NCBI GenBank assembly: GCA_001914055.1
Contig: MKXX01000003.1
Span: 176,771-240,770 of the forward strand
Direction of reading: 5' to 3'
DNA from: Haemophilus parainfluenzae
Lineage (GTDB): Bacteria; Pseudomonadota; Gammaproteobacteria; Enterobacterales; Pasteurellaceae
DNA length: 64,000 nucleotides
This document shows, one piece after another, positions 18,526 to 63,726 of the stretch; position 1 is the first letter of the stretch; each line of letters begins with the position of its first letter. Made by a program: the position numbers and the translations under genes. The notes under the pieces are model-generated. The model did not search any database. It saw nothing but the letters and a program-made list of their open reading frames with translations, and was not told the DNA's origin.

Positions 18526-18541
18526 TGTGACAAAGATCACC
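18526..18541. promoter_or_regulatory. CRP-box-like site upstream of aphA
   Basis: TGTGACAAAGATCACC (TGTGA-N6-TCAC); centre about 43 bp upstream of a candidate TATTAT -10 at 18565-18570 (class II geometry), 95-110 bp before aphA ATG. Confidence 0.45.
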
Positions 18542-18635
18542 TTTTTAAATAGCAAACGATTGCTATTATTTTACACCTTTATTTTAAAGGAATATGATTT
18601 GTTACAAGTAAAACAAACTACTTAATGAGGAAAAC

Positions 18636-19343
18636 ATGAAAAATTTACTTAAACTTTCTGCCATTGCAATTTTAGCGGCAAGCGCAGTCTCTACTTTTGC
18701 ATCAAACAAAGAACCTTACACTGAACAAGGTACAAATGCTCGTGAAATGACAGAGCAAAAACCGATTCACTGGATCTCTGTTGAGCAGTTGAAAAAAGAA
18801 TTGGAAGGTAAAGCACCCATTAATGTGAGCTTCGACATTGACGATACTGTACTTTTCAGTAGCCCTTGTTTCTATCACGGCCAAGAAAAATACTCTCCAG
18901 GTAAAAATGATTACTTAAAAAATCAAGATTTCTGGAATGAAGTGAATGCAGGTTGTGACCAATATTCCATTCCAAAACAAATTGCGGTGGATTTAATTAA
19001 TATGCACCAAGCACGTGGTGACCAAATTTATTTTATTACCGGTCGTACAGCGGGTGATAAAGATGGTGTGACACCAGTGCTACAAAAAGCCTTTAATATT
19101 AAAGACATGCACCCTGTAGAATTCATGGGCGGTCGCAAACTTCCAACTAAATATAACAAAACACCTGGTATTATTGAGCACAAAGTGAGTATTCACTATG
19201 GTGACAGCGATGACGATATCCTCGCAGCAAAAGAAGCTGGTATCCGTGGTATTCGTTTAATGCGTGCTGCTAACTCCACTTATCAACCAATGCCAACCCT
19301 TGGTGGCTACGGTGAAGAAGTATTGATTAACTCAAACTACTAA
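18636..19343 (+). CDS. aphA: Class B acid phosphatase AphA
   Basis: 235 aa; signal peptide; FDIDDTVLFSSP (DDDD motif) and YGDSDDDI; collinear with E. coli AphA. Confidence 0.9.
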   Translation: MKNLLKLSAIAILAASAVSTFASNKEPYTEQGTNAREMTEQKPIHWISVEQLKKELEGKAPINVSFDIDDTVLFSSPCFYHGQEKYSPGKNDYLKNQDFWNEVNAGCDQYSIPKQIAVDLINMHQARGDQIYFITGRTAGDKDGVTPVLQKAFNIKDMHPVEFMGGRKLPTKYNKTPGIIEHKVSIHYGDSDDDILAAKEAGIRGIRLMRAANSTYQPMPTLGGYGEEVLINSNY

Positions 19344-35242: not shown

Positions 35243-35926
35243 TTAGTGACTTTCCGCTTTGACGAGTTTCGTCCAGTTGTAATAACCATATAATGAGTTA
35301 AGTAAGTAAGCACTATACATTAAGTACATCGCTGGCTGCTCTGCCCAAAGTAAAATGGAAAGCACATTTAAGACAATCCACAATAACCATTGCTCACGAT
35401 AACGCAAAATCATCAATAATTGTGCCGCTACGGTGATAATCGTGGTTAAACCATCTAATCCTGTAGAACTCCCGCCCGCTGCTTTTAAAGCCTGCACAAA
35501 GCAGAATGTCCCAATCCCAACACTCACGAGTAAAATTGCCCAACCTTTTGGTGTTAAAGCTTTTGCAATTACACTTTCACTGCCATTATCGTTTTGCATG
35601 TGTTGTTTCCACATAAAATAACCGATAAATTGTGATGGAATATACACATAGAGCACCGTATTCATTTCGCCCAGGAAATTGTTTCCCCATGCGACATAAA
35701 AATAGGTGTAAGCAAAAATAAGCCCAAAGAAATAGTTGCTAATTTTTCCTTTACTCACCAATACTACACAGAGAATACCTGCAATACCCGAAATCATGCC
35801 TAATGGGCTATCTGGCGCAAGAACATAAGCAATAATTTGCGCGGCAAGGAAAATAACCACCCATACCACTTCAAAAGGCTTCCAACCGGATAAAAATTCT
35901 TCTTTAAGTCGTTCTGTCCAATTCAT
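35243..35926 (-). CDS. pnuC: Nicotinamide riboside transporter PnuC
   Basis: ORF to 35989; conserved start MNWTERLKEEFLSGWKPFE at 35926; about 7 TM; PnuC family. Confidence 0.85.
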   Translation of the reverse strand: MNWTERLKEEFLSGWKPFEVVWVVIFLAAQIIAYVLAPDSPLGMISGIAGILCVVLVSKGKISNYFFGLIFAYTYFYVAWGNNFLGEMNTVLYVYIPSQFIGYFMWKQHMQNDNGSESVIAKALTPKGWAILLVSVGIGTFCFVQALKAAGGSSTGLDGLTTIITVAAQLLMILRYREQWLLWIVLNVLSILLWAEQPAMYLMYSAYLLNSLYGYYNWTKLVKAESH

Positions 35927-36011
35927 GGAACACTCCTGTTTTATAAAAAGTACGCCATTTTTACACCGCACTTTTTTAAAGTAAAGCATAGCGGGTATTT
36001 AATTTGATTAT

Positions 36012-36027
36012 TGTGAGATAAATCACA
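36012..36027. promoter_or_regulatory. Perfect CRP box in pnuC-rapA divergent region
   Basis: TGTGAGATAAATCACA; centre 93 bp upstream of pnuC ATG (about -41.5 to a TATGCT -10 on minus strand) and about 63 bp upstream of a TATAAT (36071-36076) facing rapA. Confidence 0.6.
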
Positions 36028-36121
36028 CTTTATTTTTCATACTTTTAGATGGCCATGCCTTGCTTTCCCTTATAATCAGACTACAATATCGCCCCATTTT
36101 AAGAGATTCATTAAGAGGAAG

Positions 36122-38887
36122 ATGATGTCATTTGCAATCGGTCAACGTTGGATTAGCGAAACAGAAAATAGCCTCGGATTAGGCATGATTACAGACTTAG
36201 ATTTCCGTTCAGTTACCCTTCACTTTCCCGCCACAGATGAAACCCGAATTTATGCGGTGGCACAAGCTCCCTTAACCCGAATTGTATTGAATAAAGGGGA
36301 ACAACTTCATCACCAGGCAGGTTGGCAAGGTGAAGTTCTTGATGTTCAAGAAATGAATGGTCTCTTATTTTATTTAGTCAAAAATGCGCAAGGCGAAGAC
36401 GTTATCGTCAATGAAAAAGAACTTTCTCCGATAATTTCTTTTAGCCAAGCGAAAGATCGCCTCTTTTCATCGCAAATTGACCGCAGTGAACATTTTGCGT
36501 TGCGTTATCAAACTCTTCTACATCAACAAGCTCAATTCCAATCGCCTTTGCGTGGATTACGAGGCAATCGTGCGGGTTTAATTCCTCATCAACTTCATAT
36601 CGCGCAAGAGGTAGGAAATCGTGTCAATCCTCGTGTACTCTTAGCGGATGAAGTGGGGTTAGGTAAAACCATTGAAGCAGGGATGATTTTGCAAAACCAG
36701 CTTTTTACTGAAAAAGTACAACGTGTATTAATTATTGTACCTGAAACCTTGCAACATCAATGGCTTGTTGAAATGCTTCGTCGTTTTAATTTACATTTTT
36801 CATTATTTGATGAAGAACGTTGTGAAGATTTTGCCGAACAAGCTATCAACCCATTTAGTACAGAAAGCTTAATTATCTGTGCATTAGACTGGTTGAAAGC
36901 CCATCCCAATCGTGTACAACAAGCTATTGAAGCTGAATTTGACTGTTTAATTGTCGATGAAGCGCATCATTTAGCTTGGTCTGAAAATGCGCCAAGTGCC
37001 GCTTATTTATTAGTAGAACAATTAGCGAATGCTATTCCATCTGTTTTATTACTCACCGCAACGCCTGAACAACTGGGTTTGGAAAGCCATTTTGCACGTT
37101 TACGCTTGCTTGATCATGAGCGTTTTTACGATTATCAAGCATTCTTGAAGGAGCAAGAAAACTATCAGCCTGTTGCGGATGCTGTGCAATCTTTACTCTC
37201 AGAGAAGTCGCTAAGTGCGGTCGAAAAAAATCATATTTCTGATTTACTCAATGAGCAGGATGTCGAACCATTATTCAAAGCTTTAGCCTGTCATAATGAT
37301 GAGGAGAAACAAGCTGCGCGACAAGAACTCATTCAAAATCTCATCGACAGACATGGCACAAGCCGTATTTTATTTCGCAATACACGCCAAGGTGTAAAAG
37401 GTTTCCCGCATCGGGTTTATCACCAAGTAACGATTGATGCGACTGAGGGTGATGAAAAAATTCATTGGTTAATTGATTTTCTAAAATCACACCGAAATGA
37501 AAAAATCTTAGTCATTTGTAAAACAGCACAAACGGCAATTCAACTTGAGCAAATTTTACGAGAAAAAGAAGCCATTCGCAGTGCCGTTTTCCATGAGAGA
37601 ATGTCGATTATTGAACGAGATCGCGCGGCGGCTTATTTTGCAGATACTGATAATGGCGCACAAGTTTTACTGAGTTCAAGCATTGGTTCTGAAGGCAGAA
37701 ATTTCCAATTTGCTTGTCATCTCGTACTCTTCGATTTACCGGAGAATCCTGACTTACTTGAGCAATGTATCGGCCGTTTAGATCGTATTGGGCAAACACG
37801 AGACGTGCAAATTTATGTCCCTTGCCTAGCAGGTTCTGCACAACAAGATTTAGCCCGTTGGTATCATGAGGGCTTAAATGCCTTTGAACAAACTTGCCCT
37901 ATTGGTATGGCATTGTTTGAACAATATGAAACTTTATTAAAAGTGCGGTCAGAAAATAAAGCAGATTTTGAGCAACTCATTCTCCAAACACAAAAACAAG
38001 CAAAAGCATTGCGCTTAGCCTTAGAGAAAGGGCGTGATCGTTTGTTAGAATTAAATTCTAATGGTGGTGAAAAGGCACAACGACTTGCGGCAGAAATCGC
38101 TCAAACTGATAATTCACCACAATTAGTCGATTTTGCACTGAATTTATTTGATATTATTGGTGTAGAACAAGATGATTTAGGTGAAAACAGCATTGTCATC
38201 ACGCCAACGGGCACCATGCTTGTTCCTGATTTCCCAGGACTAAAAGAAGAAGGTGTTACAGTAACCTTTGACCGACAACTTGCTCTTGCGCGTGAAGAAT
38301 TAGAATTTCTGACCTGGGATCATCCAATGATACGTCAAGGCATTGATTTAATCGCTTCTGGTGACATTGGCAAAGCATCGATGGCATTATTAGTCAATAA
38401 ACAGCTGCCTGCTGGTACTCTGTTGGTTGAATTGATTTATATGATTGAAAGCCAATCACCAAAAGGTTTGCAACTGAATCGTTTTCTTCCGCCTACACCA
38501 GTTCGATTATTGATGGATAGCAAAGGAAATGATCTCGCCGGACAAGTTAATTTTGATACATTGCAAAATAAACTTAAACCGCTAGGCAAAGACATTGCGA
38601 ATAAAATGATCAAAATGGCTCGTCCAAATATTGAGCAATTAATTAAACTAGGCGATCACAAAATAACTGAAATTGCACAAGCTCAAATTCGAGAAGCCAG
38701 TAAATTAGCAGATCAAACATTGAGCACTGAAATCAATCGACTTATCGCCTTGAAAGCAGTAAATAAAAATATTCGCCAAGCAGAAATTGATGTATTAGAA
38801 AAACAACGTGTGCTTTCTCTGGAAGAGTTAAGTAAAGCAAGCTGGCGATTAGATAGCCTTCGGGTAATAGTGACAAACAAGGAATAA
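36122..38887 (+). CDS. rapA: RNA polymerase-associated SWI2/SNF2 ATPase RapA (HepA)
   Basis: 921 aa; [14 protein letters not shown] start; DEVGLGKT Walker A; DEAHH; collinear with E. coli RapA. Confidence 0.95.
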
Positions 38888-42104: not shown

Positions 42105-42461
42105 CTATTTTTTGATCGGCTTACGTGGACCCTTACGGGTACGCGCATTAGTTTTAGTACGTTGACCACGTACCGGTAAACTACGACGATGACGTAAACC
42201 ACGGTAACAACCTAAGTCTAAAAGACGTTTGATGTTTAGTGTTACTTCACGACGTAAGTCACCTTCAACGGTAAATTTACCAACTTCGTCACGCAGTTTG
42301 TCAATCTGCTCTTCAGACAATTCGCTGATCTTAACATCTTCAGCAATACCCGCTGCAGCACAAATGCTTTTAGAACGAGTTTTACCGATACCGTAAATTG
42401 CAGTTAAAGCGATTACAGCGTGTTTGTGATCAGGAATGTTAATGCCTGCAATACGGGCCAC
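42105..42461 (-). CDS. rpsM: 30S ribosomal protein S13
   Basis: 118 aa [16 protein letters not shown]. Confidence 0.97.
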
Positions 42462-42602
42462 TATGCACTCCTATTATTTTAACTAATTTGGTATTCTGAT
42501 CTTGAAAAGCCCGTTTTCAGGATACTCAAACAGAATACCAAGGACATAAATGAGTTGAGTAGTATAACTACTCAACCGGTTCTTTGCAAGAAGAAATGTT
42601 AA
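42462..42602 (-). promoter_or_regulatory. Alpha-operon promoter/leader with structured (S4 autoregulation-type) region
   Basis: 11-bp perfect inverted repeat TTGGTATTCTG...CAGAATACCAA (42488-42541) and 10-bp inverted repeat GTTGAGTAGT-ata-ACTACTCAAC (42554-42576) immediately upstream of rpsM. Confidence 0.5.
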
Positions 42603-57394: not shown

Positions 57395-57880
<486 letters not shown>

Positions 57881-57893
57881 AAACCAATAAAAT

Positions 57894-57935
57894 AGCTGCT
57901 TATTTTATACACAAAAATAAGCAGCTTTCTTTTTG
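57894..57935 (+). terminator. Terminator after trmL
   Basis: AGCTGCTTATTTT-atacaca-AAAATAAGCAGCT + TTTCTTTTT. Confidence 0.8.
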
Positions 57936-57944
57936 CATTTAATT

Positions 57945-57960
57945 TGTGATCTCGATCACA
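57945..57960. promoter_or_regulatory. Perfect CRP box in trmL-glpR convergent intergenic region
   Basis: TGTGATCTCGATCACA (TGTGA-N6-TCACA) with AATT/TTTT flanks like the pnuC and hel boxes; TATAAT at 57965-57970 and TATAAA about 58003-58008 downstream on + strand. Confidence 0.55.
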
Positions 57961-58209
57961 TATTTATAATTTTAAGATTCCCTTTTTACCAAAACAGCAG
58001 TATAAATAAATTACATTTAGAGAGGGATCTCGATGTACCCACTTGATCTATCAAGCTCTAGTCTTTCTTGACTCTTCAAGCAAACCTTCCCCGTTGCCCT
58101 AAATAAAGAATTGGCAGTCGAATGATTTGCCCTCCATTTGTATCCCTAAAATTTAACAACTATTGCAGCAAAATTAGTTTCATCTCACATCAATAAGGAG
58201 GTTGGGTGA

Positions 58210-58347
58210 ATGAAGTTAATTTTGAATTGGTCGAAACAGCAGTGGCTAGGCATGGATGCTTACCAAAAAAGTGCGGTCAATTTTGGCCGCACTTCCTATT
58301 TCTATCATTTGCAAATCACTAACCTTGTATTACTATTTTCTAAATAA
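58210..58347 (+). CDS. Candidate small ORF (45 aa) with strong Shine-Dalgarno, antisense to glpR 3' end
   Basis: AAGGAGG (58195-58201) 8 nt before ATG; MKLILNWSKQQWLGMDAYQKSAVNFGRTSYFYHLQITNLVLLFSK; overlaps USS pair and last ~14 codons of glpR; speculative. Confidence 0.25.
   Translation: MKLILNWSKQQWLGMDAYQKSAVNFGRTSYFYHLQITNLVLLFSK
58263..58294 (-). terminator. USS-pair terminator after glpR
   Basis: aagtgcggtcaattttggccgcactt; T-run follows on minus strand. Confidence 0.6.
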
Positions 58348-62656: not shown

Positions 62657-63490
<834 letters not shown>

Positions 63491-63572: not shown

Positions 63573-63588
63573 TGTGAGATAGATCACA
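63573..63588. promoter_or_regulatory. Perfect CRP box in hel-ftsB divergent region
   Basis: TGTGAGATAGATCACA; centre 105 bp upstream of hel ATG; differs from the pnuC box at one spacer base. Confidence 0.6.
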
Positions 63589-63726
63589 TTTTTCATTTTG
63601 AAGCTATCTAACAAACCCAATGAGATCATTTCAAAATCATCTTATTTTTTAACCGCACTTTTTCATCGCATTTCGCTGTATTTCACGGTAAACTATCCCT
63701 AGTTTTCAGAAATAATAGGTAATTTA

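Follow-up and report, generated by a model that had tools for sequence, protein, structure and literature searches.

The closest described relatives of the element reported here are the Sxy-independent binding sites (CRP-N sites) of CRP, the receptor protein for cyclic AMP (cAMP), in Haemophilus influenzae and other Pasteurellaceae. These sites are symmetrical (TGTGA-N6-TCACA, with a T after the distal TGTGA), intergenic and conserved in orthologous Pasteurellaceae promoters, and the signal they serve is the depletion of preferred sugars, those of the phosphotransferase system (PTS) (PMC1635313). We examined a palindrome that shares this symmetry, the T, the intergenic placement and the conservation, located upstream of pnuC, the gene for a nicotinamide riboside (NR) transporter, in a 64,000-nucleotide stretch of Haemophilus parainfluenzae DNA (contig MKXX01000003.1, positions 176,771 to 240,770 of the forward strand), which we refer to throughout as the window. 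Unlike the described regulon members, neither pnuC nor hel, the gene for lipoprotein e(P4), carries the label CRP-N in the part of the H. influenzae data covered here. We put the probability that the palindrome acts at the pnuC promoter as a canonical CRP-N site, activating in the class I-like manner proposed below, at about 0.75, a judgement drawn from sequence comparison.

Several other systems bear on this locus. The need to acquire NAD (V factor) is what defines H. parainfluenzae and its relatives nutritionally, and PnuC is specific for NR. In Escherichia coli, lac P1 is a class I promoter, with CRP at -61.5 and a -35 hexamer reading TTTACA. In crp and cyaA mutants of E. coli, transcription of aphA drops to its basal level, and CytR acts as its repressor (bioRxiv 10.1101/2023.12.05.570089). 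In H. influenzae, cAMP acts post-translationally as a competitive inhibitor of the activity of AphA, e(P4) and NadN, and both e(P4) and AphA dephosphorylate many nucleotides (PMC10694654). No paper connecting CRP with pnuC or hel came up in a literature search, with the qualification that the 2005 regulon list and the 2006 site lists lay beyond its reach and that hel might figure there. The search likewise returned nothing on the regulation of pnuC or hel, and the regulation of V-factor acquisition is apparently little known. The first-pass annotation of this DNA held that a CRP link for these genes is not a standard annotation, which agrees with the literature found for pnuC and hel but not with that for aphA, whose control by CRP is already published for E. 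coli and is hence not new.

The palindrome and pnuC lie in the window as follows:

36012-36027, no strand assigned: TGTGAGATAAATCACA, a perfect and palindromic CRP-N core between the divergent genes pnuC and rapA, read from the sequence and by pattern search

35243-35926, minus strand: pnuC, nicotinamide riboside transporter (TIGR01528 equivalog, 194 bits, E = 1.7e-57)

The centre of the box, at 36019.5, is 93.5 bp from the pnuC ATG. This confirms the first-pass description of a 16-bp CRP-consensus site in the pnuC/rapA spacer, with zero mismatches in its arms and about 93 bp from the start codon; the boxes listed at that stage were likewise found where they had been placed, but a third perfect core, TGTGATCTCGATCACA at 57945-57960, had been overlooked. 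Perfect TGTGA-N6-TCACA cores therefore number three in the window, as against 0.03 ± 0.17 in shuffled sequence, and all three lie between genes in a window that is about 89% coding. Cores with one mismatch were intergenic in one case out of three, and the two-mismatch cores all fell inside genes (28 of 28), which is the chance expectation. The half-sites TGTGA and TCACA, separated by 6 bp, carry no mismatch at the pnuC and hel boxes and one at the aphA box, and both arms of the pnuC and hel boxes are of the TGTGA type, unlike the TGCGA core of Sxy-dependent (CRP-S) sites. The window PnuC is 92–100% identical to PnuC of the H. parainfluenzae group (100% in several genome loci), and on the strength of this identity we assign the window to that group.

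The main support for a functional site came from comparison of pnuC loci. From 80 such loci in species-representative genomes, we analysed 42 belonging to the H. parainfluenzae group and 37 from other species (205,300 bp). The perfect core was present in 42/42 loci of the H. parainfluenzae group, where a single spacer base varied (TTTATC or TTTTTC, in pnuC orientation). The 37 loci outside the group contained 23 sites with at most one mismatch, 22 of which, each from a different locus, fell into one 40-bp zone 80–120 bp upstream of pnuC, with just one site elsewhere in the 205,300 bp. Sites at the equivalent position with zero to two mismatches occurred in Rodentibacter, H. haemolyticus, Aggregatibacter, Glaesserella and Actinobacillus indolicus. 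The distance between box and pnuC ATG was 93.5–97.5 bp in Rodentibacter, 98.5–100.5 bp in H. haemolyticus and H. quentini, 84.5 bp in Aggregatibacter (measured to the real ATG), and 86.5–87.5 bp in Glaesserella parasuis, A. indolicus and one Glaesserella metagenome-assembled genome (MAG). Between genera the arms TGTGA and TCACA were conserved while the 6-bp spacer varied (TTTATC, TCTCTA, TGAATT, TCTACC, ACTAGA), and arms that are kept around a diverging spacer argue for a protein-contact footprint as opposed to mere sequence inheritance. The sites exist, are non-random and intergenic, and are conserved in position and arms across genera.

Lonepinella, two Glaesserella MAGs, an H. seminalis-type promoter and the sole H. 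influenzae locus retrieved either lacked the box or had a degenerate one. We regard the pnuC box as already present in the ancestor of a large share of the Pasteurellaceae and as lost several times. A separate observation concerns the sites of A. indolicus and the Glaesserella MAG (L076, L077), which alone among the pnuC sites are hybrid, one arm reading TGTGA and the other TCGCA, the half-site typical of CRP-S. The first-pass annotation had proposed a check of conservation in related genomes; with that check run, the pnuC box proved to be kept in several genera, while the hel and aphA boxes were found in some lineages only.

A candidate core promoter lies between the box and pnuC:

35980-35985, minus strand: candidate -35 hexamer TTTACT, invariant in 42/42 H. 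parainfluenzae-group loci, its start 34.5 bp from the CRP centre

35957-35962, minus strand: candidate -10 hexamer AAAAAT, 17 bp after TTTACT, present in 40/42 H. parainfluenzae-group loci

These hexamers recur across genera. Every Pasteurellaceae pnuC locus inspected carried TTTAC(T/A) or TTGACT, the latter being the Lonepinella form, and the cross-genus element reads TTTAC(T/A), 17–18 bp, then (A/G/T)A(A/G)AAT, with the -35 hexamer starting 58–63 bp from the pnuC ATG in the loci measured. With TTTACT-17-AAAAAT as the promoter, the predicted CRP centre falls at about -69.5. Haemophilus and Rodentibacter had 33.5–35.5 bp between the CRP centre and the conserved -35, while Aggregatibacter, A. 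indolicus and one Glaesserella MAG had 24.5 bp. The two registers, at about -69.5 and -59.5 with a 17-bp spacer, are 10 bp or one helical turn apart, and a shift of this size between genera fits class I phasing. The weakness of the core promoter (TTTACT and AAAAAT) is as expected of an activator-dependent promoter, and we counted the better -35 (TTGACT) of the box-less Lonepinella in support of this view. On these grounds of sequence we favour class I-type activation over a class II arrangement at a TATGCT hexamer, which we keep as a minority alternative.

Lineages without the box (the H. influenzae locus L047 and the Lonepinella loci L065, L069 and L070) retain the core promoter, sometimes with better hexamers: the -35 of Lonepinella reads TTGACT, and the -10 of H. 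influenzae reads AAAAAT as against AAGAAT in H. haemolyticus. Loss of the box together with better hexamers hints at a shift toward CRP-independent expression of pnuC.

The second perfect core of the window lies upstream of hel:

62657-63475, minus strand: hel, lipoprotein e(P4), a 5'-nucleotidase and NADP and nicotinamide mononucleotide (NMN) phosphatase (TIGR01533, 342 bits)

63573-63588, no strand assigned: perfect CRP-N core TGTGAGATAGATCACA, 105.5 bp from the hel ATG at 63475

The window Hel matches the solved H. influenzae e(P4) structure 3ET4 (E = 2.7e-136), and a promoter-like site returned by the promoter scan, TAGTCA-18-TATACT with a TG ahead (63545-63516, minus strand), would place CRP at -71.5. 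Perfect boxes 95–110 bp upstream of hel were also present in a contig of the H. influenzae group, which encodes a Hel with 97% identity to the crystallised e(P4), and in Rodentibacter pneumotropicus, H. parahaemolyticus and Pasteurella multocida, with a one-mismatch box in one further lineage. The neighbourhoods of hel differ between the box-bearing loci (ftsB-ispD, polA, a peptidase, a flavoprotein gene), which indicates that the box follows hel. On metagenome contigs the hel box recurred in loci resembling those of H. parainfluenzae, H. influenzae and H. parahaemolyticus. The pnuC and hel boxes had been described as nearly identical, and both the location and a 15/16 identity hold in the window; this identity is, however, strain-specific, and any special meaning is ruled out by the variation of hel spacers among H. 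parainfluenzae-like contigs (TCTATC, TCTCTA, TCTCTC, TCTTCC) and by the differing boxes of other species. One H. parainfluenzae-like metagenome contig (L110, at about 685-705) has 7 bp as the spacer of its hel box, TGTGATCTCATCTCACA, which is an inactivating indel of natural origin or else an error of assembly.

A second gene of nucleotide dephosphorylation, aphA, has a less perfect box and a second operator-like element:

18636-19343, plus strand: aphA, class B periplasmic acid phosphatase (TIGR01672, 394 bits), divergent from hslV

18526-18541, no strand assigned: CRP-like box TGTGACAAAGATCACC with 1 mismatch, 102.5 bp from the aphA ATG at 18636

18550-18565, no strand assigned: palindrome TAGCAAACGATTGCTA, which resembles a PurR operator, with the CRP box of aphA on one side and the -35 on the other

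The similar box that had been noted upstream of aphA was thus recovered, one mismatch included. A promoter-like site from the promoter scan, TTTACA-17-TATGAT (18570-18598), would again place CRP at -71.5. In Aggregatibacter aphrophilus, Aggregatibacter actinomycetemcomitans and one further locus (L088, L089 and L092), aphA is likewise divergent from hslV and has a one-mismatch box 99–102 bp upstream, with a perfect distal arm and the mismatch in the proximal arm. The 14-mer AGCAAACGATTGCT, which forms the core of the palindrome at 18551-18564 in the window, recurs exactly in the same three loci a few bases past the aphA box. We take AGCAAACGATTGCT and TAGCAAACGATTGCTA to resemble a PurR operator, and the pairing of the two elements suggests dual control of aphA by CRP and purines. 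As a side observation, the best matches to the window AphA are just 89% identical, the named ones being from Aggregatibacter, while PnuC and Hel have 99% matches; this strain may carry an unusual or acquired aphA allele.

From these sites we infer CRP binding, a transcription start, activation as the sign of the effect and co-regulation as a unit. The proposed sequence of events would begin when preferred sugars are exhausted and cAMP rises. A CRP dimer would then occupy the pnuC box, about 34.5 bp upstream of the weak TTTACT-17-AAAAAT promoter and near -69.5, on the helical face of classical class I sites, and would recruit RNA polymerase via the C-terminal domain of the alpha subunit, leading to more transcription of the NR transporter gene. 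The same regulator probably activates hel/e(P4) and aphA, whose boxes are predicted at -71.5, and carbon starvation would in that case jointly induce periplasmic dephosphorylation of NMN and nucleotides and uptake of NR. We counted for such co-activation the alike positions of the boxes (-69.5 at pnuC, -71.5 at hel and aphA) and the presence of hel and aphA boxes in several species with differing gene neighbourhoods. We also counted for it the dependence of aphA transcription on CRP and CyaA in E. coli (bioRxiv 10.1101/2023.12.05.570089) and the induction of aphA, about 4-fold, under MIV starvation in H. influenzae (PMC6957337). In H. parainfluenzae a tie between NR uptake and carbon starvation is very probable, and pnuC is a new predicted member of the CRP regulon, its site being real and probably functional. 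Put cautiously, in H. parainfluenzae and several of its relatives CRP would couple periplasmic nucleotide and NMN dephosphorylation, together with the uptake of NR, to carbon starvation.

A number of results weigh against this reading. At pnuC, the generic promoter scan scored TTTACT-17-AAAAAT below threshold and found nothing in the pnuC/rapA spacer, and the predicted -69.5 lies 2 bp off the textbook -71.5. The pnuC box of H. influenzae 51P10H1 (L047, at about 2385-2410) is degenerate, reading cgtaatgaattttcact with mismatches and a one-base insertion, a state that would make a link between CRP and pnuC invisible in the model species. At hel, the box is absent in Actinobacillus equuli and in a 66%-identical lineage, and among metagenome contigs neither Actinobacillus-like loci nor a group with a consensus TGcTATAAT promoter have it. 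The distance from the hel box to TATACT is also not phase-locked between species (about -69.5 to -80.5, by hand counts), which makes the phasing argument weaker at hel. Where aphA is located elsewhere, in H. pittmaniae and P. multocida, it has neither the CRP box nor the PurR-like 14-mer. Expression data point the same way in part. hel and pnuC are absent from the list of at least 4-fold changes under MIV starvation in H. influenzae (PMC6957337), though an H. influenzae-group hel locus has a perfect box; Table D of the same RNA-seq study, which contains those changes, gives aphA in the category 'Other' with a log2 fold change of -2.03, the induction of about 4-fold counted in favour above (PMC6957337). 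The exponential-phase transcriptome of a P. multocida crp deletion contains neither pnuC nor an e(P4)-type gene, a weak test given that cAMP is low in rich medium.

The rival that survives best accepts CRP binding but not a coherent NAD regulon: the outcome at the boxes would be repression or fine-tuning, or hel and aphA would belong to general nucleotide scavenging (for carbon, phosphate or purines) with pnuC standing apart. It has the conserved PurR-like operator beside the aphA CRP box in its favour, as well as the control of E. coli aphA by CRP and CytR, which is that of a nucleoside regulon, the action of e(P4) and AphA on many nucleotides (PMC10694654), and the patchier occurrence of the hel and aphA boxes compared with the pnuC box. 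Set against it are the predicted positions of all three boxes, from -69.5 to -71.5 upstream of weak or moderate promoters, which are those of an activator, and the established specificity of PnuC for its substrate. We consider it unlikely on balance.

Much of the same evidence decides what is left of the earlier proposal that CRP controls an NAD/NR salvage regulon. The pnuC site and the genuine nature of the hel and aphA boxes speak for that proposal, but its stronger form, a dedicated NAD regulon, is weakened on three counts: hel and aphA encode broad-specificity nucleotide phosphatases; the CRP dependence of aphA is published for E. coli, and its PurR-like operator here points to purine and nucleotide scavenging; and the three boxes differ in phylogenetic distribution, those of hel and aphA being missing in several lineages.

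A more ambitious scenario can be stated, although we regard it as doubtful. Pasteurellaceae cAMP-CRP may have taken over the control of V-factor acquisition that NadR exerts in enterobacteria, co-inducing PnuC, e(P4) and AphA on carbon starvation in a feed-forward arrangement with cAMP inhibition, a system since lost or weakened in H. influenzae. CRP induction combined with cAMP inhibition of the same phosphatases would, speculatively, amount to an incoherent feed-forward arrangement, and if true such a loop would time the uptake of NAD precursors and nucleosides relative to the development of competence. A NadR-operator pattern of inverted TGTTTA repeats, which makes for a weak test, gave 89 matches in the window against 80 expected, and its best match in the pnuC-rapA spacer, at 36061, had 3 mismatches; a NadR box at pnuC is at chance level. 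Haemophilus NadR is not known to have a DNA-binding domain. Both nadN and nadR lie outside the 64-kb window.

For the pnuC promoter itself, the first-pass annotation had proposed a class II geometry built on a different -10 hexamer:

35985-35990, minus strand: earlier candidate -10 hexamer TATGCT, present in the window, which would give -41.5

In that arrangement CRP at -41.5 would stand in for the -35 and make direct contact with RNA polymerase. In the window the distance fits exactly, and TATGCT, or its variants TACGCT and TATACT, occurs in most Rodentibacter loci, where it lies one base further, at -42.5. The hexamer itself was poorly conserved, however. Among the 42 H. parainfluenzae-group loci the position reads TAAGCT in 21, TATGCT in 19 and TGAGCT or TAGGCT in 2, and in H. 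haemolyticus, which keeps the box, it reads GAATCT. The Aggregatibacter and Glaesserella boxes, moreover, are 10 bp nearer to the conserved TTTACA, which is unlike a fixed -41.5. What is shared across genera is the element that reads TTTACT-17-AAAAAT in the window, and on conservation we judged class II activation via TATGCT to be improbable and less likely than the class I-type promoter.

The box could also serve the divergent gene on the opposite strand, instead of or besides pnuC, as had been allowed for in the first pass:

36122-38887, plus strand: rapA, divergent neighbour of pnuC (NF003426, 1369 bits)

36060-36065 and 36082-36087, plus strand: likely rapA promoter, TTGCTT, 16 bp, TACAAT, with the TTGCTTTCCC motif common with Rodentibacter

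One CRP site can be common to divergent promoters, and here the box centre is 102.5 bp from the rapA ATG and at about -74.5 relative to TTGCTT-16-TACAAT. Synteny nevertheless assigns the box to pnuC. In H. haemolyticus pnuC is preceded by an ABC-transporter ATPase gene in the same orientation, in A. indolicus by a different, unrelated gene that is also co-directional, and in G. parasuis rapA is also non-adjacent; the box is present in all three, and in H. haemolyticus and A. indolicus pnuC is the sole gene downstream of it. Lonepinella shows the converse, with the divergent rapA-pnuC arrangement kept and the box absent. A box that tracks pnuC with or without a rapA neighbour belongs to pnuC. 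From the box to the TTGCTTTCCC motif and its TTGCTT, H. parainfluenzae has 33 nt and Rodentibacter 8 nt, a difference of about 25 bp or 2.4 helical turns, and such variable spacing leaves no helical phase toward rapA. On synteny and spacing together we reject rapA as the main target, and we hold any role of the box at rapA to be very unlikely. A chance palindrome, for which the AT-rich intergenic context speaks and nothing further, can be set aside as next to impossible in view of three perfect cores against 0.03 expected and of 22/23 near-perfect sites sharing one spot upstream of pnuC in other species.

The remaining perfect core, and an element within the pnuC promoter, are distinct from the three promoter boxes:

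57945-57960, no strand assigned: TGTGATCTCGATCACA, the third perfect CRP core and an orphan, flanked by trmL and glpR, which converge on it with their 3' ends (context 57880-58305)

35965-35973, minus strand: uptake signal sequence (USS) core AAGTGCGGT within the 17-bp spacer of the pnuC promoter, read from the sequence

No protein gene lies downstream of the orphan box on either strand. A TATAAA at 58002-58007 would place CRP at -61.5, and the box could serve the transcription of a small RNA, or of an antisense RNA that runs into glpR at its 3' end. The region downstream of the box matched no Rfam family at the gathering threshold or at E ≤ 1, its fold z-score was just -1.9, and its small open reading frames were unconvincing; it contains a long hairpin at about 58170-58225. 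Above the gathering score, Rfam gave a single match for the whole window, to the Alpha operon ribosome binding site (RF00140, 107 bits, 42429-42544, minus strand). The AAGTGCGGT core, which we take to be the Pasteurellaceae USS, is conserved in the pnuC promoter spacer of H. parainfluenzae, Rodentibacter and Lonepinella. A further AAGTGCGGT core lies at about 63652-63660, and an inverted USS pair forms a terminator-like hairpin at 58269-58294, after glpR.

The conserved CRP site of pnuC offers a concrete candidate regulator of NR uptake, and would link V-factor uptake to the same starvation signal as competence. A transcriptional link through CRP would also complement the inhibition of the AphA, e(P4) and NadN enzymes by cAMP. 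As an addition to a very large and well-understood regulon it is incremental and introduces no new kind of element, but its comparative support is unusually clean.

Among the systems with which this locus can be compared, class I promoters such as lac P1 are alike in having a single CRP site upstream of a sub-consensus promoter with a -35 of TTTAC(A/T), and the pnuC registers are exactly 10 bp apart among genera, as dependence on the face of the helix predicts. They differ in that the predicted pnuC centres, -59.5/-60.5 and -69.5/-70.5, are 1–2 bp from the textbook -61.5 and -71.5. The E. coli aphA promoter shares with the aphA promoter described here an orthologous gene and a second operator of LacI-family type by the CRP region, and in E. 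coli it shows CRP-dependent induction by carbon starvation; the second operator, however, is that of CytR in E. coli and the PurR-like AGCAAACGATTGCT here. The NadR-repressed nadA-pnuC operon of enterobacteria exerts transcriptional control over the same transporter gene, pnuC, but through another signal and another regulator. Finally, the inhibition of AphA, NadN and e(P4) by cAMP (PMC10694654) involves the same signal, the same enzymes (AphA and e(P4)) and the same context of NAD and nucleotide use, but there it is periplasmic enzymes that are inhibited, whereas here CRP is predicted to induce transcription, an effect of the opposite sign.

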